Positions 46,936 through 62,224 of a stretch of 64,000 bases of DNA are shown here, one piece after another. Source of the stretch: Ostreococcus lucimarinus (taxonomy: Eukaryota); the NCBI GenBank assembly GCA_000092065.1, contig CP000581.1. The stretch is one strand, 5' to 3'. How positions within the stretch are numbered: the stretch's first letter is position 1; every line of letters begins with the position of its first letter. The position numbers and the translations under genes are program-made. The notes beneath the pieces were generated by a model. The model was not told the origin of the DNA and ran no database searches. It saw only the letters and a list, made by a program, of their open reading frames with translations.

Positions 46936-47407
46936 TCGCGACGCTCTCGCGCGCGCTTTTTAATTCTTCGCTTGCATTCTTTTTACGTTGTTCGCCGCAC
47001 TTCCAGCCTCGGCGACGCGCGCGCGGAGGTCGGCGCGCGCGCGCGCGATGGCTGGTAAGTCCAACGCTCCCATCGCGCTCGCGCTCGCCGCGTTCGCGAG
47101 CGCGACGTTCGCGTTCCCGCTGTGGTACTGCTACGCCCCGAGCAAACCGATGTGGACGCAGGACGAGAGTCTGAGCGTGGCGGCGGTGCGACGAGGGGCG
47201 TTCATGAACAGCGGATCGCGAGACGTCGGACTCGATCGAGGGAAACCGGCGTGAGCGTCGATGGACGGCGACAGGGTAAGGTACGGCGAGGTACGGCGAC
47301 AGGTGTAAAGTAGGCGAGAGGTGTAAAAACAAAAAAAATTGAAATCAACGACAACGGGTCTGTCTACTGTCCTAACGAAGAGATTCCGCGCGCATTCGAT
47401 CGCTCGG

Positions 47408-48457
47408 TCATTCGCCCGCGGCGGCGATGACACCCGCCACGATGGCGGCGACGGCGCCCGCCGACGCGACGCGAAGCTCGGGATCGAAGACGCTCTTGCC
47501 GTGCTCCGCCGCCTTGGAGATGGCTGGGTCGAGTGGAACTTTACCCAGAAACGGCACGTTGAACTGCGCGCACATGGCTTCGGCGCCGCCTTTCGAGGGC
47601 GCAAATACGTCCGTGCGCGCGCTGAGCGAATCCGCGAGCTCGGGCGCGTGCGTCGCCAAAAGCTCGCGCACGCGACTCGTCTCATCCGCGCCCGTGTCCT
47701 CGTTCACGAACGACATCTCGCGCATGGGCACGCGAAGTCCGGACATGTTTTCCACCACCCCCAAAACCTTGATGCCGGTCTTTTTGCAAAAGTTGAGCTC
47801 CTTGCGCACGTCCGCCACCGCCACCTCTTGCGGCGTCGTCACCACCAGCGCGCCGTCCACGCCCGCCTCCTTCAAATACTGCACCACGCTCAAGTGCTCG
47901 TCCGACGTCCCGGGCGGCGCGTCGACGATCAAGTAATCCAGCTCCCCCCACTCCGTGTCCGCCAAGAACTGCTTGATCAAACCATTCTTCCTCGGCCCTC
48001 GCCAAATCACCGCGTCGTCTCGATTCGGCAGCATGAACCCGATCGACATCACCGCCAGATTCTCCTCCACGTACACCGGCGACCACCCAGAGTTACTCTT
48101 GTGCACCTCCGCCTCCGCGTCGCCGCACATCGTCGGCACCGACGGTCCGCAGATGTCCACGTCCAGCAGTCCAACCTCTTTCCCTCGTCCCGCGAGCCCG
48201 AACGCCAACTGCGCCGCGAACGTGCTCTTCCCGACCCCGCCCTTGCCGCTCAGCACCAATATCTTTCGCCGCACCCCGCGCAGGCGCTCGGCGACGCGCG
48301 TCGCGTCCGCGTCGGTGCCCTCGCGCGCTTTCGCCGCCTCGCCCGACGCGCACGCCGCGCGATTGGGACACCCCGCGCACGACGCCTCGCGCCCGGCGCG
48401 CGCGCTCGCGGTTCCCGGGCACGCCTCCGGCGCGTTCTCGGGCCTGTCGTCCGCCAT
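47408..48457 (-). CDS. NBP35: Cytosolic Fe-S cluster assembly factor NBP35 (Mrp/NBP35 P-loop ATPase).
   Basis: ATG at 48457. N-terminal four-Cys motif [25 protein letters not shown]-loop [22 protein letters not shown]. Mrp signature through VENMSG. The upstream track ORF (to 49045) is antisense to the next gene. Confidence 0.85.
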
Positions 48458-48599
48458 CGTCGCGCGCGGCGACGCGACGCGCGCGCGAGTGCGGCGGACG
48501 GCGCCGACCTCCAGCGCAACACCATCCGGAAGAAAACGCGGCAGAAGCGCGCGCGCAGCGTCGGCCGCTCGAGCGCGCGGCGCTCGAGCCGCGCGCGCG

Positions 48600-51500
48600 A
48601 TGACGGACAACGCGCACGCGCACGCGCGGCGCGGCCGCGCGAGCGAAGACGCGAACGAGCGCGCGAGGACGGCGCGACGAAGCGTCGATGCGTGGGCGAT
48701 GCACGACGCGGCGAGACCGCTCGACGGCGCCGTGGGCGACGCGAATCGCGAGCGTCGGGCGTCGGGAAGCGAGACGACGTCGGTGACGCTATCCGTCGGC
48801 GATGGACGCGCGCGAACGGGCGAGGGAGGGGCGCCGCGAGCGCCGCCGGGGGCGTTCGCGATGCAATCGCGCGCGCTCGCGGAGGAGGAAAAACGCGTGT
48901 ACGAGACGAGACGGACGTCGTGGGAGGCGCTGGCGCGCGAAGCGCGCGAAAAATGCGCGCAAGGGACGCTGCGGGACGTGTGGTTGCGCGAAAGGCTGTC
49001 GAACATCACGAGAAAGACGCACGAGGGGGAGCGGACGGCGCTCATGACTGATTACTTCGCCGACGCGGACGATCGCGTGGCGGTGGAGGGAGTTGATGGC
49101 GTGCGAAGAGGGATGACGCATCGTGAATTGCGAGTTTTGATCGATCGAGTGTGTGAAAAAGATATGCCCGAGTGGGGCGTGCGCGCGCACGGTGGGAGAA
49201 TCGCGGTGGTGGTGCCAAACGGGCCCGAACTCATGACTTCTTTGATGTGCGTGTTGCAGCGACACTGCGCGGTGCCCATCAATCCGGTGACGACGCAAGA
49301 GGAGATTGAAGAAGAGCTGTTGAATACGAACGCGAAAGTGTTGTTGTATCAACGTGACGGGGGTAAGGGCGATGTTAAGATGCGTCGGTTGTGCAAGAAG
49401 CTCAAGTTGACGCCTTTGATCATCACGCCGAGCCCGACAGTGGCGGGCGATTTCACTCTCATCGGCGATCCGTACGGCTTAGCCACAGAAGAGGACTCGG
49501 CTGGGAACGACATCGAGCTCATGCAAGCCGACCGCTTGGCTTTGATTCTACACACGTCTGGGAGCACGGGGAAAAAGAAGGTTGTTCCCATTGCGATGTC
49601 GCAAATCCTTATCGGCGCCGCCGCCATCGCGGCGTCTTGCGGCTTGAATGAAGACGATATTTGCTGCAACTTCATGCCGTTGTTCCACGTCGGAGGTATC
49701 TTAAGAAATGTACTGGCGCCAATCATGTCCGGTGGATCCACGGTTGCTATGCCTTTCTTCGATGTCGACAACTTTTGGGAAGTCCTCGAGAGCAAAAAGT
49801 GCACGTGGTACTACGGCGCGCCGACTATGCACATGCTCATCGTAAAGTCCGCGGAAACCATGGCGAAGAACGACAAGGGATCAGTAAAGACATGTGTGAG
49901 GTTTGTCGCCAACGCTGCGGGCCCGTTACAACCGGCGACCGCGACGGAACTTCGACGCTTGTTCAACAACGCCTCGGTTTTGCCTTCGTACGGTATGACG
50001 GAGTGCATGCCTATCTCGTGCCCGCCCATGGGATACGCGTTAGAGCGCCCGGGGACTTCTGGTCGATCAATCGGGCCGGAAATCGGCATCATAGACGATA
50101 GCGGTAATCTTTGCCCTTCTGGTGCGGTTGGGAACATCATGGTGCGTGGCCCTCTCGTGTTGACCGGGTACGAGGGCGAAGCGCCCGGTTCGAGCGGATT
50201 TGAGCCGGGAGGCTGGTTTAACACTGGCGACATGGGTAGGATGGATGATGATGGTTATTTGTACGTCACTGGTCGGACGAAAGAAGTCATTAATAGAGGA
50301 GGGGAAATCATCTCGCCGGTTGAGATTGAGGAAGCGCTCGCGTCGCTACCGGCAGTGTCTGAGTGCGTCGCCATCTCTGTCCCACACGGTACGCTTCAAG
50401 AAGTTGTTGGGGTCTTGGTTGTTCCAGTGAAAGGTGGACAAGTTCCCGGTATGCGGCAAATCGTACAGCACGTCGCCAAACGTTTGCCACCGTCCAAGTG
50501 GCCGCAGTGCCTTATTTTAGCGAGTGGCATTCCGAAGTCCATCACGGGAAAAGTGAGTCGCAGCGTGATCACTAGGCAGCTGCGACTACCTTCGCTCGAA
50601 GATGGTATGCGGGAGTTAGAAACAACGTTTGAAGCAGACTTTGCGGACAACGCCCTCTCTGGGGCACAGGCATTGAATGTAGACAACGCCTCGTCAGAAG
50701 TCGTGCAAGCGCTTCTTCTAGTGCCTGGCGTCAACGACGCCGGAGCTTGGATGGATAGCACCGGCTCAATCATCGCTGTCGTTACCCCGAAAACGCTCGA
50801 TGCGTCATCGGTGAGCTCGGCATCCACGCGTTACCTTCCTGGTTATCTTGAACCAAAGGAAATCTTGCCCGTGGCGTCAGTCCCACGAGATGCGCAAGGC
50901 GCCATCGAAGTTTCCAAAGTTTACGAAATGATGCGCCAAGATTTGACAGACGCTCCAGCGAACCCCAATCAAGAGCTTCTCGCGCATTTGTGGGGCGAAG
51001 TGCTCGGTACGGATTCGAGCATGATATCCATCAAGGATGATTTCTTCCTGAGCGGCGGCTCGTCCATTGCGGCGGGTCAACTCGCGGGTTTGATTCGCAA
51101 GAAGTTTGAAGTCAACATCACCGGAGCGGATATGTTCGAGCTTCGCACGATTCAAAGAATTGCGCAGATGATCGACAAGCGTACGAAGGAGGCGGAGAGC
51201 TCGGATAGTAAGCCGACGCACGCTCCACGACCCGTCGGCCCGGTTGACTGGGTCACGCCGAAGTCAAGCTTGGGCATCATCCCGAGCATCGTGCAGCTAA
51301 TGCCCTTGTACCTGATCAAGCCATTCTACAACATGGCACGTTGGGTTTTGTTCTTGATGTGCTGGTCGCACGTGTTCCACTACCTCGGTCCGAGCTTGCA
51401 TTGGATGAGGCGCGAGCACTTCATGGCTAAGGCTCAAAAGTTTGGCATGAATGAGGCGCATTCGCACTTTTACAGTACCGTGCAGCTTCTGTCGTTCTTC

Positions 51501-53759
51501 GTGGCGATATTCTTTGTAGCTTTGATCGTGTCGATACTGTTCCCACTTAGCGCGATCGTGTTCAAGTGGGTAGTGTTGGGGCGATTACAAGCGGGATCGT
51601 ATCCACTTTGGGGGCAGTACTACTTGCGATGGTTCTTAGTCGAGCAAGTGACCAAGATTGCGGGTCTCGGCATTTTTGATCTTTCTCCATGGTTGTTCAC
51701 TTGGTACATGCGCATGATGGGGGCTTCGATTGGAAAAAGTTCATATGTTAGCCCGAAAGCCATCATCGGCGACTTTGATCTTATCACGATTGAAAAGAAC
51801 ACCACTGTAGATGAAGGGTGCAACATTCGCGCCTTTGAAGCGCGTCGCGGCGGTATGCGTCTGTCGCCAATTTTCATCGGTGAAGGTTGCACGCTGTGCG
51901 TCCACGCGGTGTGCGGGCCGGGCGCATACGTTCCAGCTGGTTCGACACTTGCCGCTTTCACATCCTGGAGAGAGATGGATCCGCAACAAGTCCGGCCCGT
52001 GAGCACGAAAACGGCACAAATGCACTCGGAAACGCCGCGGTTGGCGTCGCGTTTGTTCGTCGCGTTTCCCATCGTTTTCACGTGCTTCTTCGTTCGTTGG
52101 CTGCCGTGGGTTTTAGTGCTGCGCGTCGTCCAGCAACACTCCATCGGAGATAACTTACTCACGCACGCGGGTATGGCAAACTGGAGACAAGAGCTCGACA
52201 CACTTGACAACGACTACGACGCGCTCGAAGTGTTCGTCACGCTGCTCGGGCGTTTGAGCTGGACGGATTGCATCGAATGGTTTATGGACCCGTTTCGGCT
52301 GGGTTGCATAGCGCTTGCGCGTCTGATGCACGCGACTGCCGGCCCGTTTGTACAGCTTTTCGCGACGATTCTAGTCAAGCGCGTCATCATTGGTAAGTTT
52401 AAATCTGGCGGCTTACCGCAAGCGCCGGCGGCGCGCGAGTGGGAATTGACACGTCGCTACATCATGCGTAAACTTTGCCCTAATGGCAAGTTTTACGGTG
52501 CGACGGATCTACTAGGTAAGCATTACCAGTACACAACGTATATTTACCGTGCGCTTGGCGCGACGGTTGGTGAGCGCATATTCTGGCCAGGCTCTGGCGT
52601 CATCGTCGGGGACGGAATGTACGATCTTTTGCACATAGAAGACGATGTCGTGTGGGGATCACGTTCTGCGGTGTATCCAGCAGATACCATCGGAGCTCTT
52701 CCCATACGTATTCGGCGTGGCGCGAACATCAGCGACCGTTGCGTCATCTTTGGAGGCGTTACTGTGATGCCGAACGCGTGCCTCGGCTCTGGGAGCGTCG
52801 CCGCTCGCAAGATGACGATTGCGAGCGGGTCGATTTGGGTCGGCAGTCGCAATGGCGTAGCCGTACAACTCGACCCTGGCGGTGCGTCGAGTATGATGGA
52901 TGAGCGCCAGACCGCGAAGCCATTCGGACGTGCAACGTACTTGGGACAAGCGACGTACCCCGTCGTCCCGTGGTACTTCATGCCCGTGATTTGTATCAGC
53001 GTGCAAATTTTCAAAGCCGCCGCGAACATGTTGCCGATTTACGTCGCGTGGTACGCCACCGCGTACATCTCCAGAGTATACCTTGACGAAGATTGGCAAA
53101 CTCTCGACGCGACACGGTACTTGAGCATCTTGTTCGTCGTATTCTTGATTTTGCGCGGTGTTCAAACGACGTTCAATCTCGTGAATTCCATCTTTCTGAA
53201 GTGGATCATCGTCGGTCGACGCACGCCCGGAAACTATCCGTGGGACACTAGTTCGTATTGTTTCCGCTGGAAACTGTGCGATATCATGAGCGACACGACA
53301 GATTTAATGCTTCTCTCCGGAAGCGAACATTTGTGCCGATACTTCCGCGCGAAAGGAGCCAACATTGGGCAGAACGTTTGTTTGTACCCCACGGGAGCGG
53401 ATCCGCCCATGCCCGAACCAGACTTGGTCACTATTGGCGACGGCGCGTGCATCAATTTCGCCCACGTCATCGCGCACACGAATACGTTGGGCGCTTTTGC
53501 GCTGAACAACATTCTCATTCGCGAACGCTCGACCCTCTGCATGGAGAGTCGTGTCATGGGTGGCACGAAAGTCGGAGCAGATTCCATTCTCCTCGAACAC
53601 ACGCTCGCAATGGTGGGTGACGATGTTGAACGCGGGGGGATCTGGCAAGGATGGCCCGTACAAATGGTTTTGAATTCGTGCGAACGCCCGCGCGGAAAGT
53701 CGTCGCCGTCAGGCCCCGAGAAGGCAAGTCCGATGGCCAAATCATATGGGGCCATGTAA
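48600..53759 (+). CDS. Pls-type (epsilon-poly-L-lysine synthetase-like) single-module nonribosomal synthetase. Domains: adenylation (~49100..50570), thiolation/PCP (~50960..51190), then a membrane region with six predicted transmembrane helices interleaved with three tandem hexapeptide-repeat (LbH) modules C1 (~51700..51960), C2 (~52550..52830) and C3 (~53350..53640).
   Basis: Single 1719-codon exon from ATG 48600 (alternative start 48861). A-domain cores: [15 protein letters not shown] (A3), SYGMTEC (A5), [39 protein letters not shown] (A7/A8), [11 protein letters not shown] (A10). Carrier motif [15 protein letters not shown]-terminal 850 aa are an internal triplication, each unit holding a pair of hydrophobic helices followed by the motif (K/R)W(V/I)(V/I)(L/V)GR..(A/P)G.YP and then [LIV]GxxxxI-type hexapeptide repeats. 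Confidence 0.8.
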
Positions 53760-53857: not shown

Positions 53858-54832
53858 CTACTCTGGAAACCAGTCGACGCCCGCGTCGAAGGCGCCGTCG
53901 CCTCGCTCCATTTCTTTCGCTATCAACTCTAAGCCTAAAGGATAATTATTCGATAACACTCGCGATATCAACGCCACCTCGTCCCAGTGCGTTTTCAGCG
54001 CCGCCTCCACGCCCTCGGACTCACCGTGCGCCTCGCGAATGCTCTTCGCCCACTCGTCGGCGAGCACGATTTTTCCAAGGTGTTTGCGCAACGCGGGATC
54101 GAGCAACGCCGTCATCTGTGCCTCCGCGGTGACCCCCGGCGGTTTCGCCTTCATCGGCGCACGCATTTCCTTCGCGAAATACCACACCGTAAACATGAAA
54201 CGTTCGCGCATCGCCGGCATCACGCGATGCAATCCAAACTCGGACGAAAAAATCACCACTCGTCCCGCCTTCGGCGCGATCGTCACCCGTCCTCGCGGAA
54301 AAGGGTACAACGCCAGCGCGCCGCCGTCCCTCGCCTCGCACCAGTCTTCGTCCAAGTACGCGCACATCGTCACCCGCCTCGAATCTAAACTCGCGTCGCT
54401 GTCGAAGTGCAGCGGAAAACATCCGCCCGCGCCTTCGTTCACTTGCAGTTTCGTCGACGTTCTATCGAGCGCGCCGCCGCCGAGCGCGCCGAACGCCTCG
54501 TTCAGCGCCTCCATCACCGACGTCTCTTTCGCCAGCTCGTTCACCAACGGCGCGCTCGCCGCGTCTTCCTTCGACAACCGATGCACCTCGCACTCGTACA
54601 CGTGCGGTTTCGCGAGCGCGACGACGCCCTCGCGCGCGAACAGCGACGCGTTCGCGACGAACGCACCGCGTCGCCGCAGCGCGTTGAATTCATCTTTCAG
54701 CGCGCGCGCGCGCGCGACGTCGAAGGCGTCGTCCAAAACGACGTAACCGTGTCGCGCGAGTCGCGCCTTGGCGTCGCCGGCGACGAGCGCGCGCGCGATC
54801 GCGGCGTAGGCGCCGGTGAAGCGCCGCGACAT
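53858..54832 (-). CDS. 2-oxoglutarate/Fe(II)-dependent dioxygenase, prolyl 4-hydroxylase-like.
   Basis: HxD...H iron triad (FPLHFDSD...GLHRV) and the RxS 2OG-binding region (RERFMFTVWY) within a double-stranded beta-helix pattern. Confidence 0.55.
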   Translation of the reverse strand: MSRRFTGAYAAIARALVAGDAKARLARHGYVVLDDAFDVARARALKDEFNALRRRGAFVANASLFAREGVVALAKPHVYECEVHRLSKEDAASAPLVNELAKETSVMEALNEAFGALGGGALDRTSTKLQVNEGAGGCFPLHFDSDASLDSRRVTMCAYLDEDWCEARDGGALALYPFPRGRVTIAPKAGRVVIFSSEFGLHRVMPAMRERFMFTVWYFAKEMRAPMKAKPPGVTAEAQMTALLDPALRKHLGKIVLADEWAKSIREAHGESEGVEAALKTHWDEVALISRVLSNNYPLGLELIAKEMERGDGAFDAGVDWFPE

Positions 54833-54878: not shown

Positions 54879-56282
54879 ATGGCGCCCGACGACGTCGAGC
54901 GCGCGGTGCCTCTCGAGGACGACGTCGAGCGGCCGCTTCGCGACGTCGCGAGCGACGGCGACGACGACGACGACGACGCGAGCGAGGACGCGCGCGCGTC
55001 GGCCGGAGACTTGGCGACGATTTTCGCGCTGTGGAACACGATGGTCGGCAGCGCGGTGCTCGCGGTGCCGTGGGCGTTCACGGAGAGCGGATTAGCGCTG
55101 GGCGCGGCGAGCGCGGTCGTTATGACGTGCGCGATGGCGTACACGGCGACGCTGGTGCTGCGGTACGGCGCGCGGGGAGGGCACGACGACTTGGCGGGGA
55201 TGTGCGGCGCGGCGCTGGGACCGCGAGCGAGAGCGGGGTGCAACGCGGCGATGGCGCTGATGATGGCGCAGTGCGTGGTGGTGTTCGACATGATGCTGTC
55301 GACGAGCGTGTACGGCATCGTCAAGGGGTTCGCAGATTTGGCGAAAATGCCGGCGACCGGTGGCGGCGGGACGACGGCGCTGGCGGCGACGCTCGCGTCT
55401 TCGAATTCCACGGGCTGGGCGACGTGCACGAACGCCGCGAAAGACGCCGCGAAGTGTTGGAATCCGTTCACGGCGGTGGGTGTCACCGCCGTTGCGCTGA
55501 TGTGTCTCGGAAGTCTGAAGAATCTCGACGGTTTCGTCGCCGTGAGCGTGCTCGGGCCCTTCTTCATGACGTACTTGATTTTGTTCATCGTATTCAAATC
55601 AGTCGTGGCGTCGGCGCCCGTGGCGCCGATCGCGCCGTACGCGAACTTTTCGACGTTTAAAAAGACGGCGGGGGTGTTGTCGAGCTGTTTATTTTCCCAT
55701 CACGCCGTGATTCCGGTGTGCCGGGCGAACAGTAAGTCGAAAAATAACGGGCGGAATCTTCTCGTCGCGTACGTGTTGGCGCTGATGTCGTACCTGGCGC
55801 CGGCGTTGGCTGGGAATTTCAGCGCTGCGTACGTCGCCGTGCGACGGGGGCCGAACGGTTCGTCTCGGGCGGCAAATTTCTTGCGCGTGTTTCCACCGAG
55901 CGATTACTATACTCTATCCGCGCACGTGGCGGTGACGGTACAGTTCTTGACCATGGTCCCGCTGCTCTTGTACATTCTGCGAACGCAAGTCTTTGGCCTG
56001 CTTCCGCAATTTCCAGCCAAGTACCACGGCGCGGCGTCGTTCGCGGTCAACTTTGCCGCGATCGCTCTCGGCTCCTTCTGCGCGGCGCATCCCGACATCG
56101 ACATCGGTATGATTCTTTCCAAGTGCGGCGCCGTGTTCGGCTTGATTTTCGCCTACGCGGCCCCCGTGCTCGTACACGTATTCGGACGCCGAGGAAATCG
56201 TCACCCTCTGTGGAACCACATCGCGCACGGCACCATTCTCGCCGTCGGCGTCGCCATCGCCCTCGCGCAATTCGTCGATTGA
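54879..56282 (+). CDS. Amino acid transporter of the Aa_trans (AAAP/vacuolar amino-acid transporter-like) family, about 11 predicted TM helices.
   Basis: N-terminal ATIFALWNTMVGSAVLAVPWAF signature, then repeated hydrophobic segments to the C-terminus. The ATG is only 47 bp from the divergent oxygenase ATG. Confidence 0.75.
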   Translation: MAPDDVERAVPLEDDVERPLRDVASDGDDDDDDASEDARASAGDLATIFALWNTMVGSAVLAVPWAFTESGLALGAASAVVMTCAMAYTATLVLRYGARGGHDDLAGMCGAALGPRARAGCNAAMALMMAQCVVVFDMMLSTSVYGIVKGFADLAKMPATGGGGTTALAATLASSNSTGWATCTNAAKDAAKCWNPFTAVGVTAVALMCLGSLKNLDGFVAVSVLGPFFMTYLILFIVFKSVVASAPVAPIAPYANFSTFKKTAGVLSSCLFSHHAVIPVCRANSKSKNNGRNLLVAYVLALMSYLAPALAGNFSAAYVAVRRGPNGSSRAANFLRVFPPSDYYTLSAHVAVTVQFLTMVPLLLYILRTQVFGLLPQFPAKYHGAASFAVNFAAIALGSFCAAHPDIDIGMILSKCGAVFGLIFAYAAPVLVHVFGRRGNRHPLWNHIAHGTILAVGVAIALAQFVD

Positions 56283-56366
56283 ACGACCGTCGCTCGCGCA
56301 GTATGTATTTATTTCTTCTCGCGAGACGACGCGCTGTTGTACCATGTCACCATTCTCGAGCCACCT

Positions 56367-57788: not shown

Positions 57789-58024
57789 AAGTCACCCGAG
57801 AGAAACCGCGCGGCCGAAAGTCGACACCCGGCACGGCCTGGAGACGCGCGCCGCACGACGCGACGCGGCGCCGCGACGACGGCCGCGACCTCGCGCGACC
57901 GCTCGAGAGGAATCGCGCGCGCGCTCAAATCGCCGTCGACGTCGAATCGCCGTCGACGTCGACGCGCGCGACGGAGGCGCCGCGAAGAGAAACGACGCGA
58001 ACGACGCGTGACGTCGACCGGGAC

Positions 58025-61000
58025 GTGATGGGAAAACACGACACGAAGTCGGACGACGCGACGCCGGATGACGCGGAAGCGCGCGACGTGAAGACGGAGA
58101 TGGTGCCGCTGTCGACGATGTTTCGATTTTACGAGCCGGTGGACATGGCGCTGCTCGCGGCCGGGGCGTTGTTCTCGGCGCTGGGCGGAGCGCTTTTCCC
58201 GGCCGTCAACGTGGCGTTCGGGAACATGCTCGATTCGACGGCGGTGGGGGACGTGGGATCGAAGATTAACAACGCGGTGATCGCGATGGAAATCGTGGCG
58301 GTGTCTCTTGGAGTGAGCTTGACGCTCGGGTACTGGTTCACGTCGTGGGGGGCGGCGCGCGCGGCGAGAAATATGCGAAGCGCGTTCGTGCGAGCGATGT
58401 TGGCGCAGGATATCAACTTTTTTGAAAGCAAAAAGGCCGGGGAAATCGCGACTCTCACGGGGGCAACCGTGAACGACTTTCAAACGGGAATGTCGAAGAA
58501 ATTTGCGGAGCTCATTCAGAGTGGCTTCAGTATGGCTGGTGGCTTTGGCGTCGGATTTTACTTCAATGCCGAATTATCCGGCGTGATTCTCGCCACCGTT
58601 CCTCTTCTCGGTTTCGCGACGTTTTTTCTGATTAAATCGATCCAGGATATGCAGAAAGGGAACGTGGAGTACGAAAGTGCTGCAGCCGTGGCGACGGAGA
58701 CCATCGGAGCCATTCGCGTGACGAACGCGTTGAATTATCAAAACGTCGCGACGAATCGCTTCAAGGCAAATTTAGGCAAGGCGCAGCGACACGGCGCAAA
58801 GCAAATTTGGAAAGCGTCTTTCGCGGGTGGGGGGCTCTTTGCTTCGATGTTCATCATGTATGCCTTAGGTTTGTGGTACGGTGCCAAGCTCATCGCCGAT
58901 AGTAAGGTGGACGCCATCGCGAGCTACCCACCGCCTGCCGGTTTGACCGATGTCACCGACGCGACGTGGGGCGCGCACGCGACGTTCGCGCGTCAAATGT
59001 GTGTTTACACGAATGAACCAACGAAAAACTACACCGGCGAAGCACTATTACAATGTGCGTGCGGATTGGATTACAGTATGGCGCTCCTGACAACATCACC
59101 AAACTGCGGTTGCGGTTATCGACTGTCGACGACGTTCGGAGGCGTTCTTGACTCGGCCGCATCGCCATGCCTGACGGGCGGTACCATTGTGATGGTCTTC
59201 TTTTCAATCTTGTTCGGTGGCTTCGCCCTGGGACAGGCTGGTCCTGCGATCGAGGCTCTAGCGAAAGCAAGGATGGCCGCGTTTAAAATCTACGGCGTCA
59301 TCGATCGCAAACCTGAAAACGGAATAGACACGCGTAAACCTACAGGCGTCGATCCAATCACGCCCATGCGTGGTGAAATAGTCTTCAAAGACGTTGACTT
59401 TGAGTACTCGCCACAGCGACCAGTGTTCAGCGGTCTCAATCTCACCATCGAGGGAGGTGCAGTGGTTGCGCTCGTCGGCGCTTCAGGATGCGGTAAGAGT
59501 ACGATTACGAAGCTCGTCGAACGCTTTTACGACCCGATGAGCGGTACCATCTTTCTTGATGGTGTCGACTTGCGAAATATTCGCATCGATAAATTACGCG
59601 CGAATATTGGCATCGTCTCTCAGGAACCACTTCTCTTTGAGGCATCTATCGCCGACAACATCGCCGCCGGACGCCCTCAAGCGATAGGTGGTTCGAAAGC
59701 TTCTATGGACGAAATCGTCGCTGCCGCCGAAGCAGCGTGCGCGCATGAATTCATCATGTCGTTTCCGAATGGATACAATACCATGGTCGGTGGGAAGAAC
59801 TCCAAACTATCTGGAGGACAAAAGCAACGCATCGCCATCGCCCGCGCCGCGCTGCGCAACCCGGCAATATTGATTCTCGACGAGGCGACTTCAGCGCTCG
59901 ACACCGAAAATGAGATGCTTGTGCAAGACGCTCTCGATGGATTAGTGCACTCTGTCGCTGGTGGGCAACGCACTACCATCGTCATCGCACACAGATTGAC
60001 AACAGTTCGTGACGCCAACAAGATCGTCGTGCTTGGCAGCAAGGATGCCGCCGCTGGGTTGGCGGGTGGTGGTGGTGGTGCACATGGCTCAATTGTTCTC
60101 GAACAGGGCACGCACGACGAGCTCATGGCGCTCGGCTCAAAGGGCATGTACAGAAACCTGGTTGGGTTGACCAAGGATGATGGCTCTAAGCGCGTCAAGC
60201 GATCTGCGTCACTCTCCTCCTTTCAGTCAGTGCGTCGCGAAACGAGCGAATTCGGCGAAGAATTCACAAAGAAAGACGTTCAAGTTACGGCAAATAAGCC
60301 GACCGAGGTGTACAAAGTGAGCGCGGCGCGCGTGTGGAAGTACAGCAAGGAGGACGTTCCTTTGCTCATCACTGGCATGTTCTTCGCCATCGCGAATGGC
60401 TGCGTCATGCCATCCGTCGCCTTCGTCTTCGCCGAGCTGTTGACTGTCTTTTACATGGATGACATTACTTACATGCGAGAAAGATCCGCTGTTCTTTCGG
60501 GTGCGATGGGTGCCGTCGCCGTCGGAGCGTTTTTGGTAATGGGAACGCAAGGGGGTATTTTTGGTAACATCGGCGAGCGTCTCACGACGCGTTTACGCAT
60601 TCACTTATTCAGATCAATCATGCGCCAAGATGTTGCCTTCTTTGACGAGAAGGAGAACACCGTTGGCGCGTTGACGACACTTCTCCAAGCCGACACGACA
60701 AAAGTTCGCACTATGACGGGTCAAAGTTTTGGAAGCGTGATTCAAGCCGCCGCCGCGCTTACGTTTGGTCTCACTGTGAGCCTCACAGCGTCGTGGAAGT
60801 ACGGTCTCGTGCTGCTTGCATGCGTTCCCGTTTTGAGTATCGGTGAAATGCTGAATATGAAAAATCTTGCTGATAGCACGTCGCTGGACGAAACCGTCGC
60901 CGAAGGTTCCGCTCGGGTGTCCGAGACGGTGACGATGATTAAAGACGTACACGCCTTCGGTCTTGAGGATAAAATGGCGGAGAATTACGATGCAGCTATA

Positions 61001-62224
61001 TCGACGACGACGGCGGAAGAGCGACGCAAGGCTTTGCGCACTGGTGGTTCGTTTGGCCTCGCGCAAGCTTTGACGATGGGCTTCTACGGGTTCGCCTTTT
61101 GGTGGGGTGGGCAGTTGATCGGCAAAGGAGAGCTCACTTTCATGGATTTCATGAAGTCGCTTTGGGCGCTGGGCTTCTGCGCTGCAGGCGCGGGGCAAGC
61201 GGCTACTTTTGCCGGCGATAATCGCGATGGCACGGCATCGGCCGGGCGTATTTTCAAGATGATCGATCGCGTGCCGCCGGTGAACGCGCAACCGTTCATT
61301 CAAGTCTCCGGCATTGAGGAGACCGCTCGCCAAGTCCCGACTTCGTCGAGCGACACTGACGAGAAGAAGTTTGGCAAAGTCATCGACAACTTGAAGGGAA
61401 AGATCGAGTTCAAGGGCGTGTTCTTTAGCTACCCAACTCGTGATGCGCCAGTTCTTGGGGGATTGGACCTCCAAGTGAATCCGGGGCAGACTGTGGCGCT
61501 GATCGGGCAATCAGGAAGCGGTAAGTCGACGGCGATTCAACTCCTCGAACGGTTTTATGAAATCGTTCGCGTCAGTCAACGAATCACAGACGACGATAAC
61601 GGTAACGATTTCAAGATTGCGATCGAAGGCGCGGGGTCAGCGGGTAAGATTTACATCGATGGCGTCGATCTCTCTGAGTTAGACTTGATGTGGTTCAGAA
61701 GCAATGTGGGTTTAGTCGAGCAAGAACCGACGCTCTTTTCAGGAAGCGTGCACGATAACATCGCGGCGGGCATGCCCGGCGGCATCGCAACTCGCGACCA
61801 AGTCATCGCTGCGGCGAAAACAGCCAATGCACACGAATTCATCGTTCGCATGCCCGACGGTTACGATTCCGACGTCGGCATCGGTGGTGGCCGTGTCTCT
61901 GGGGGCCAAAAGCAGCGCATCTCCATCGCGCGTGCCATCGTCAACGATCCCCGCATCTTACTCCTCGACGAAGCTACCTCGGCGCTCGATAACGAGTCAG
62001 AACGTCTCGTTCAAGCCGCTCTTGACGGTTTACTCGCCGACGGCAGCAAGCGCTCGACAATCGTCATCGCCCATCGCCTGTCGACGATTCGAAACGCCGA
62101 CAAGATTTTCCTGCTCGAAAATGTCGACAACGCCGGCGGCGTCGTCGCCGAGAGCGGCACTCACGCCGAGCTCATCCGCGCCGGCGGCAAATATAAAGCA
62201 TTGACGTCTGCATACGACCAGTGA
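58025..62224 (+). CDS. ABCB: Full-length ABC transporter, subfamily B (MDR/P-glycoprotein type; TMD-NBD-TMD-NBD).
   Basis: Two NBDs with Walker A GASGCGKST / GQSGSGKST, signatures LSGGQKQRIAIARA / VSGGQKQRISIARA, and Walker B ILILDEATSALD / ILLLDEATSALD, plus two 6-TM domains. A Cys-rich ~90-aa insertion sits in the first extracellular loop, and a ~27-aa insertion in NBD2 between RFYE and IYIDG. Confidence 0.9.
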   Translation: MMGKHDTKSDDATPDDAEARDVKTEMVPLSTMFRFYEPVDMALLAAGALFSALGGALFPAVNVAFGNMLDSTAVGDVGSKINNAVIAMEIVAVSLGVSLTLGYWFTSWGAARAARNMRSAFVRAMLAQDINFFESKKAGEIATLTGATVNDFQTGMSKKFAELIQSGFSMAGGFGVGFYFNAELSGVILATVPLLGFATFFLIKSIQDMQKGNVEYESAAAVATETIGAIRVTNALNYQNVATNRFKANLGKAQRHGAKQIWKASFAGGGLFASMFIMYALGLWYGAKLIADSKVDAIASYPPPAGLTDVTDATWGAHATFARQMCVYTNEPTKNYTGEALLQCACGLDYSMALLTTSPNCGCGYRLSTTFGGVLDSAASPCLTGGTIVMVFFSILFGGFALGQAGPAIEALAKARMAAFKIYGVIDRKPENGIDTRKPTGVDPITPMRGEIVFKDVDFEYSPQRPVFSGLNLTIEGGAVVALVGASGCGKSTITKLVERFYDPMSGTIFLDGVDLRNIRIDKLRANIGIVSQEPLLFEASIADNIAAGRPQAIGGSKASMDEIVAAAEAACAHEFIMSFPNGYNTMVGGKNSKLSGGQKQRIAIARAALRNPAILILDEATSALDTENEMLVQDALDGLVHSVAGGQRTTIVIAHRLTTVRDANKIVVLGSKDAAAGLAGGGGGAHGSIVLEQGTHDELMALGSKGMYRNLVGLTKDDGSKRVKRSASLSSFQSVRRETSEFGEEFTKKDVQVTANKPTEVYKVSAARVWKYSKEDVPLLITGMFFAIANGCVMPSVAFVFAELLTVFYMDDITYMRERSAVLSGAMGAVAVGAFLVMGTQGGIFGNIGERLTTRLRIHLFRSIMRQDVAFFDEKENTVGALTTLLQADTTKVRTMTGQSFGSVIQAAAALTFGLTVSLTASWKYGLVLLACVPVLSIGEMLNMKNLADSTSLDETVAEGSARVSETVTMIKDVHAFGLEDKMAENYDAAISTTTAEERRKALRTGGSFGLAQALTMGFYGFAFWWGGQLIGKGELTFMDFMKSLWALGFCAAGAGQAATFAGDNRDGTASAGRIFKMIDRVPPVNAQPFIQVSGIEETARQVPTSSSDTDEKKFGKVIDNLKGKIEFKGVFFSYPTRDAPVLGGLDLQVNPGQTVALIGQSGSGKSTAIQLLERFYEIVRVSQRITDDDNGNDFKIAIEGAGSAGKIYIDGVDLSELDLMWFRSNVGLVEQEPTLFSGSVHDNIAAGMPGGIATRDQVIAAAKTANAHEFIVRMPDGYDSDVGIGGGRVSGGQKQRISIARAIVNDPRILLLDEATSALDNESERLVQAALDGLLADGSKRSTIVIAHRLSTIRNADKIFLLENVDNAGGVVAESGTHAELIRAGGKYKALTSAYDQ

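Follow-up and report, generated by a model that had tools for sequence, protein, structure and literature searches.

A 64,000-nucleotide stretch of Ostreococcus lucimarinus DNA (contig CP000581.1 of assembly GCA_000092065.1; referred to here as the window) carries on its plus strand a gene for a membrane-anchored synthetase of 1719 amino acids. From its N to its C terminus, the protein comprises an adenylation (A) domain, a degenerate segment that resembles the C-terminal subdomain of an A domain (Asub), a carrier (thiolation, T) domain and a membrane-embedded domain of the type predicted for Pls and PosA, the synthetases of epsilon-poly-lysine and delta-poly-ornithine (Table 1). Our data indicate that the A domain is an acyl-CoA-synthetase (ACS)-type domain and that the algal gene adds a further member to a family that is known but has hardly been characterised.

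Table 1. Features of the synthetase gene, in positions of the window (residue numbers are those of the algal protein)
Feature	Position	Strand	Basis or remark
Complete coding sequence	48600..53759	+	1719 aa plus stop (5160 bp), no intron apparent
Complete ACS-type A domain (Acore and its own Asub), residues 150-668	49047..50603	+	Pfam, NCBIfam, PDB, AlphaFold2 (AF2)
A3 / P-loop	49551..49580	+	Motif location; conservation in homologues
A4-equivalent motif with H363 (49686-49688), V364 (49689-49691), G365 and R369 (49704-49706)	49668..49709	+	
A5, with SYGMTE at 49986-50003, including G465-M466 and P471	49986..50015	+	
A7/A8, WFNTGD...VEIE	50214..50330	+	
A10 catalytic Lys (K651) of the ACS-type Asub	50550..50552	+	Invariant in 121/121 sequences
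Degenerate second Asub-like segment between A and T, residues 684-781	50649..50942	+	hhalign
Carrier (T, or peptidyl carrier protein) domain	50976..51173	+	Pfam PP-binding
Membrane-embedded polymerisation-type domain, ~800 residues	51252..53669	+	TIGR02353, tblastn, AF2, hydropathy
Helix pairs	~51276-51575, ~52041-52391, ~52977-53213	+	Predicted
Left-handed beta-helix repeats, one after each helix pair	~51594-51959, ~52629-52874, ~53229-53606	+	Predicted

An initial annotation of this DNA had proposed that the A domain carries ACS-like core motifs rather than those of the amino-acid A domains of nonribosomal peptide synthetases (NRPSs). Indeed, we located the A3, A4-equivalent, A5 and A7/A8 motifs in one plus-strand frame within 49100-50600, and they are invariant or nearly so across 120 homologues. 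Since the motifs sit inside Pfam matches to AMP-binding (5.4e-54, 183.9 bits) and AMP-binding_C (1.3e-13, 52.1 bits), a pair above the Pfam thresholds that is followed by PP-binding (1.2e-12), chance resemblance is excluded. The top NCBIfam model for the A domain is a FadD7-family acyl-CoA ligase (1.8e-77), with long-chain, o-succinylbenzoate and malonyl-CoA ligases next, and none of these, FadD7 included, reaches its equivalog cutoff. TIGR01733, the model for amino-acid adenylation (cutoff 317 bits), was not among the best 25 NCBIfam matches, which extend down to 139 bits. In a sequence search of the PDB, the best matches were oxalate-CoA ligases (AtAAE3, 5ie0, 2e-68; LsOCS, 6qjz; yeast Pcs60, 8aff), then fatty-acyl-CoA and feruloyl-CoA synthetases (8weu, 8wev) and then malonyl-CoA synthetases. 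By BLASTP, the A domain shows 31% identity with AAE3, 23% with the phenylalanine-activating domain PheA and 23-28% with its counterparts in canonical Pls/PosA-type proteins.

Structural comparison gave the same picture. The AF2 model of residues 150-671 (pLDDT 75.9) has a fold closest to the oxalyl- and malonyl-CoA synthetases, with AAE3, Pcs60, LsOCS and MatB leading the Foldseek matches (TM-score ~0.75) and no amino-acid A domain among the first 50. Furthermore, the matches listed by NCBIfam, PDB and Foldseek searches included no model or structure of a fatty-acyl-AMP ligase (FAAL). The loading domain is an ACS-type member of the ANL superfamily and not an amino-acid type, and its nearest relatives are the short dicarboxylate-CoA ligases (i.e., oxalyl- and malonyl-CoA synthetases) and FadD7-like ligases. 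The initial annotation had assigned the domain to the FAAL/ACS branch; the ACS part of that assignment stands, while its hint at a fatty acid is the weakest part; the results favour a small acidic substrate. The closest solved relatives, AAE3/Pcs60/LsOCS (5IE0-5IE3, 8AFF, 6QJZ) and MatB (4FUT), have PLFHV, a GMTE-type A5 and GRxKExINRGGE in common with the algal domain, but each acts as a free-standing enzyme whose product is a CoA thioester. DhbE (1MD9) is likewise ACS-like, loads a carrier protein instead of CoA and has a His234-type A4; it differs in its aromatic substrate class, in being a stand-alone enzyme and in its much lower relatedness to the algal A domain.

We aligned the A domain (L-INS-i, MAFFT) to PheA (1AMU, residues 182-526, code DAWTIAAICK), AAE3 (residues 28-508) and, in a second run, also DhbE (residues 188-529). 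V364 takes the position of PheA D235, i.e., the Asp of the FDxS motif that binds the alpha-amino group, and these alignments place no Asp at or beside that position, as the initial annotation had read from the motifs. The gate residue H363 corresponds to PheA F234, AAE3 H214 and DhbE H234, and G365 to PheA A236 and AAE3 H216. Further along the pocket, Y405, A437, A439, S463, P471, I472 and K651 fall at PheA positions 278, 299, 301, 322, 330, 331 and 517; AAE3 has C288 at A439, S289 at A440, A313-M314 at G465-M466 and H319 at P471. The resulting code, V-G-(L/R)-Y-A-A-S-P-I-K, contains neither the FDxS Asp nor a Lys/Orn-type signature, the two features that together, according to the initial annotation, would have spoken against its reading. 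The canonical Pls/PosA-type relatives gave DAESIGTVIK, DFEG(D/E)GTITK and DGES(V/I)SVVNK in the same alignment, and their resemblance to the published codes of cationic homopolyamino acid (CHPA) synthetases, which include DGESISVVNK and DIESIGTVTK (PMC10522769), supports the procedure by which the pocket was extracted. In PosA the alpha-amino anchor is D217, and a Glu at position 239 of Pls/PosA enzymes binds the side-chain amine (PMC10522769).

Oxalate, the substrate of the closest solved enzymes, was considered and rejected. Ser289 and His319 of AAE3 position oxalate and are conserved only among oxalyl-CoA synthetases (PMC8905533). Because both are replaced in the algal protein (by A440 and P471), and family-wide, oxalate is not a predicted substrate. 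The alignment further suggests a pocket that appears larger than that of AAE3, in which H216 has given way to Gly with an invariant Arg four residues on.

This Arg, R369, aligns gaplessly with S240 of DhbE, a residue that reportedly contacts the substrate and is treated in work on DhbE as the equivalent of PheA position 239. R369 may be a binder of a substrate carboxylate, and the residues near it in the inferred pocket are small (V364, G365, A439, A440 and G465). The pocket string HVGRY(A/C)AASGMPIK, with close variants, is conserved over approximately 360 matches to the A-domain profile from algae, fungi, diatoms, Physarum and bacteria.

Downstream of the A domain, the carrier domain contains the motif FFLSGGSS (51042-51065), in which the predicted phosphopantetheine attachment site, Ser822 (51063-51065), is invariant. 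A fused carrier with an invariant Ser suggests loading in cis instead of formation of a CoA thioester. Between the A and the carrier domain lies the degenerate Asub-like segment, which hhalign matched to the A8-to-A10 region (Asub) of Pls/PosA-type A domains with a probability of 99.3 (E 1.3e-20, 91 columns) and more weakly to the family's own working ACS Asub (E 1.3e-10). The segment keeps an A9-like LPGYLEP, and the column of the A10 Lys holds S, T, A or E in most members. A profile of this segment matches most bacterial members of the ACS-type clade described below twice, with a strong match at the relic and a weak one at the working Asub, and gives one match per canonical protein; it scores 41 bits on the PheA Asub and 34 bits on the AAE3 Asub. 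An NRPS-like degenerate Asub at this site suggests that a complete ACS-type ligase took over from the Acore in a Pls-like ancestor, and on profile comparison we regard it as moderately supported that the clade arose by such an A-domain replacement, with the ancestor's own Asub left as a vestige. The relic was seen throughout the family, with bacterial members mostly included.

The C-terminal domain matches the Pls/PosA terminal-domain model TIGR02353 in five stretches (2.5e-55, 188.1 bits) and does not reach its curated cutoff of 423.1 bits. Judged by this profile, it is distantly homologous to the polymerisation domain of Pls and PosA and lies outside the TIGR02353 equivalog. The AF2 model (pLDDT 74.7, pTM 0.77) consists of three repeats, each with a long helix pair, short helices and a beta-helix of short strands, so that six predicted transmembrane helices, in three pairs 3' of the carrier, would alternate with three beta-helix repeats. 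The layout predicted for PosA has the same triple repeat (PMC10522769). Foldseek returned only left-handed beta-helix (hexapeptide) acyltransferases and no structural analogue of the whole domain, and sequence matches in the PDB were weak hexapeptide transferases only. We found 40 invariant residues in this domain that are common to the algal protein's clade and the canonical clade, including H1626 (53475-53477) and E1606. A charge signature that would separate polyanion from polycation synthetases was tried and discarded; the net charge of the domain hardly differs between the two clades (+1.6 against +1.6 to +2.3 per 100 residues), and the carrier-motif pattern missed most bacterial sequences. 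Likewise, the invariant residues specific to one clade (S1354>D, G1374>R, D1379>N, N1628>F and G1631>R) showed no simple charge pattern.

Taken by architecture, the algal protein thus resembles Pls and PosA (TIGR02353; A domains 7WEW and 8G95-8G98) in its single A-T module and its homologous C-terminal domain, built of three helix pairs and three beta-helix repeats, in having no separate condensation or thioesterase domain, and in the conservation of H1626, E1606 and other core residues. It differs in that its A domain belongs to another branch of the ANL superfamily, with no counterpart of Asp235 or Glu239, in its extra degenerate Asub and in its sub-cutoff TIGR02353 score. Furthermore, we predict an anionic substrate in place of a cationic one, and an ester bond where Pls and PosA form an isopeptide.

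An alignment of the C-terminal domain, scanned by tblastn against one genome per bacterial and archaeal species, recovered 25 loci. Ten are close to the algal protein (~1e-81 to 1e-122) and come from Novosphingobium, Myxococcota, Planctomycetota, Kitasatospora and a Dormiibacterota metagenome-assembled genome; the other 15 are distant (1e-16 to 1e-31) and include Methanothrix, Phycisphaerae and Humibacillus, among others. All ACS-type loci with an intact A domain (L001-L006, L008 and L010; the domain is truncated in L007 and L009) carry NMMPLFHxGGIxRN together with S/GYGMTE, and all canonical loci (L011-L025) carry FDxSxEE, TYGPTE or VYGPTE, and GRxDxQ(V/I)K. For the canonical control L011, the TIGR02353 score was 655.5 bits and the TIGR01733 score 453 bits. 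Among the recovered loci, these sequence motifs split the superfamily cleanly into a canonical Pls/PosA-type clade and an ACS-type clade. In two Novosphingobium loci, a gene for an Sfp-type phosphopantetheinyl transferase lies directly 3' of the synthetase (L001, 8138-8929; L002, 8327-9082), which fits a working carrier domain. Both loci also have an open reading frame (ORF) of approximately 875 amino acids 5' of the synthetase (L001, 839-3457; L002, 981-3617). It had no Pfam match in either copy and no NCBIfam match in the L001 copy, and it may encode a partner of the synthetase system.

Among eukaryotes the family is widespread. Homologues of the algal protein were found in Bathycoccus, Mesostigma, Coccomyxa, Guillardia, diatoms, chytrids, Mucoromycota, Basidiomycota and Physarum polycephalum, as well as in one myxobacterium, and its nearest named relative is that of Bathycoccus prasinos (49% identity). 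With a basidiomycete C-terminal domain as the query of a representative set, we obtained 326 clusters at E<=1e-30, and the ten clusters for which names were taken placed ascomycete members in Hortaea, Erysiphe, Zopfia, Ophiocordyceps, Verticillium and Geopyxis. Several full-length fungal members (P0276, P0298, P0300 and P0316, from Erysiphe necator, Acrodontium, Pseudocercospora and Fulvia fulva) bear the public label 'Oxalate--CoA ligase'. This label covers the N-terminal domain alone and ignores two thirds of the protein, and as a description of the substrate it is, on the pocket residues, unlikely.

The Hortaea protein, used as a query, led to one Aureobasidium cluster of 126 members (1685-1690 amino acids; representative THW02430.1, P0365, 1690 amino acids), which includes A. 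melanogenum proteins of 1688 amino acids. THW02430.1 is 31% identical to the algal protein end to end, across 1644 residues, and the two differ at 1 of 14 pocket positions; its NCBIfam profile is like that of the algal protein, with a TIGR02353 score of 199 bits. In A. melanogenum, polymalate (PMA) is made by an NRPS-like synthetase, PMAs, in which A-like, T and C-like domains are combined with six transmembrane regions and a thioesterase is absent; its gene is 5049 bp long, its deletion abolishes polymalate production, and antiSMASH labels it 'NRPS-like' and not 'NAPAA' (Wang et al. 2020, as reviewed in PMC11286673, PMC9210645 and PMC11905612). Since this size and architecture fit the Aureobasidium cluster and misfit a Pls-type protein, THW02430.1 very probably represents the published PMAs. 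Compared by its description, PMAs resembles the algal protein in the order A-like, T and C-like, in its six transmembrane regions, in having no thioesterase and in gene length (5049 versus 5160 bp), and differs in its host, a black yeast instead of a green picoalga, and in that the Aureobasidium member is only 31% identical to the algal protein. Physarum is a classical polymalate producer whose synthetase is still listed as unidentified (PMC9210645). The P. polycephalum member of the family (P0026, Phypoly_transcript_00199) has the pocket residues of the algal protein in the MAFFT alignment. The A domain of P0026 also contains a large insertion.

Sequence and models together give the architecture and the type of each domain, and on this basis we consider it fairly probable that the algal gene codes for a polymer synthetase of Pls/PosA architecture, anchored in the membrane and consisting of one module with an ACS-type loader, which would activate a hydroxy-acid that is small and acidic, L-malate being the likeliest, and build a polyester. 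The ACS-type domain would adenylate a small carboxylic acid lacking an alpha-amino group, most likely L-malate, with the invariant R369 holding the second carboxylate amid the small pocket residues. The acyl group would then be passed to the phosphopantetheine arm at Ser822 of the fused carrier and not to free CoA. The C-terminal domain, with its conserved H1626 and E1606, would enable a free acceptor, either a monomer or the chain being extended, to attack the thioester through its hydroxyl, and iteration of these steps could yield the polyanionic polyester poly(beta-L-malate) at the membrane. Here Ser822 loading, ester formation, iteration and the choice of malate are all predictions. The end-to-end homology and the near-identical pocket of the Aureobasidium member support a substrate with no alpha-amino group and a product other than poly-lysine. 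The initial annotation had suggested both, and the ACS class of the A domain agrees with them.

Several points weigh against this proposal. The equivalent of PheA position 239 depends on the sequences included, being R369 in one MAFFT run and L368 once DhbE was added, and given this dependence on the alignment we treat the role of R369 as inference. The PMAs accession QHD40385.1 was absent from the listings of the Aureobasidium cluster, so that we infer the identity of PMAs with THW02430.1 indirectly. The function of PMAs itself comes, as the reviews report it, from genetics and not from in vitro chemistry (PMC11286673; PMC9210645; PMC11905612). In the literature covered we found no substrate assay for any member of the ACS-type clade, and in the literature searched no report of polymalate in algae. 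Finally, the neighbours of the synthetase within the window give no pathway context, as they are housekeeping genes only. The same literature searches did not turn up the two-clade view, the conserved pocket with its Arg or the relic Asub, and those for the family motif strings and for further descriptions of PMA synthetases yielded nothing additional.

It is unlikely, though well worth weighing, that an enzyme of this architecture uses another small acid (malonate, tartrate, glycerate, lactate or a different hydroxy- or dicarboxylate), or that its C-terminal domain, instead of polymerising, makes a single acyl transfer to a non-polymer acceptor (e.g., a lipid, a sugar or a protein). Oxalate and malonate are the substrates of the closest solved enzymes, the beta-helix repeats are similar to O- and N-acyltransferases that act in a single turnover, and the link to polymalate runs through one genetically studied member, matched by size and architecture, of a clade for which we found no biochemistry in the literature covered. 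Against this, the residues specific to oxalate are missing, the 40 invariant C-terminal residues and the triple-repeat layout are common to the iterative Pls/PosA polymerases, and the pocket is nearly identical to that of the Aureobasidium protein.

An amino acid could also be the substrate if Asp or Glu were activated at the side-chain carboxyl, which would give a beta- or gamma-linked polyanionic polyamide. The scaffold family does make isopeptide-linked homopolymers (PMC10522769), the pocket Arg could hold the alpha-carboxylate, and activation at the omega-carboxyl needs no Asp235. Nonetheless, we consider this improbable, as the A domain groups with non-amino-acid ligases on every measure, the inferred code has no acidic residue to bind an amino group, and the Aureobasidium phenotype is polymalate (PMC11286673). 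A FAAL-like loader and a lipidated product have a slimmer chance still: fatty-acid-CoA ligases are among the top NCBIfam names, all under their cutoffs, and the initial annotation drew an analogy to FAALs and fatty-acyl-CoA ligases, but the best sequence and structural neighbours are oxalyl- and malonyl-CoA synthetases and the inferred pocket contains an invariant Arg and Tyr. Lastly, an ordinary epsilon-poly-lysine or delta-poly-ornithine synthetase with odd-looking motifs, which the A-T-membrane-domain layout and the TIGR02353 match might suggest, can be set aside as contradicted by alignments that place neither Asp235 nor the clade-typical Glu at 239, and by scores (188 bits against a TIGR02353 cutoff of 423, TIGR01733 not in the best 25) far from those of the canonical control on both models.

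Regarding the gene itself, the start at 48600 follows the gene call for P0001, a database protein with 99% identity. Four proteins from sister species show conservation from approximately residue 82, and in all four the frame is open from the first Met. The plus-strand frame of the synthetase is open for a further ~650 nucleotides 5' of the likely start (47955-48599), and long overlapping ORFs lie on both strands near the start (47339-49051, plus; 47408-49045, minus). Because 99%-identical contigs have a ParA/Mrp-like ATPase gene called on the minus strand at ~47.4-48.45 kb (by offset), the upstream plus-strand frame looks like a non-coding, GC-rich open-frame artefact. Near-identical contigs further place a 2-oxoglutarate-Fe(II) (2OG-Fe(II)) oxygenase at ~53858-54832 (minus), an amino-acid transporter of the Aa_trans family at ~55000-56300 (plus) and a full-length ATP-binding cassette (ABC) transporter at ~58000-62000 (plus). 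Within the synthetase gene, the GC content is 0.64 over the A-domain half (48-50 kb) and drops to 0.54 over the half with the carrier and membrane domains (50-54 kb); bins over the whole window range from 0.54 to 0.69. The drop may stem from amino-acid composition or from heterogeneity in general, and not from a mosaic origin.

None of the automated labels 'acetyl-CoA synthetase-like', 'oxalate--CoA ligase' and 'NRPS-like' fits the whole protein. Recognised as a member of an acidic-substrate sister clade of the poly-lysine and poly-ornithine synthetases, it yields three predictions, i.e., that the substrate is malate or a close analogue, that R369, predicted at the pocket position occupied by Glu in Pls/PosA enzymes, binds a carboxylate and that the product is a polyester. 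More tentatively, and with somewhat less than even confidence, we extend this to the whole ACS-type clade, whose members might be synthetases of polyanionic polyesters (polymalate or similar) across eukaryotes (prasinophytes, diatoms, cryptophytes, all major fungal phyla and Physarum) and in a few bacteria, having arisen once by the swap of a Pls-like A domain for a dicarboxylate-type ligase that left a fossil Asub behind. If so, P0026, nominated here as a candidate, would be the long-sought polymalate synthetase of Physarum. Polymalate-like polymers would possibly be far commoner than their few known producers (Aureobasidium, Physarum and Penicillium) indicate, with diatoms and the abundant marine picoalgae as candidates. 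Marine picophytoplankton would then make a so far unreported acidic polyester, a polyanion that could matter in marine settings for metal binding or for dissolved organic matter.

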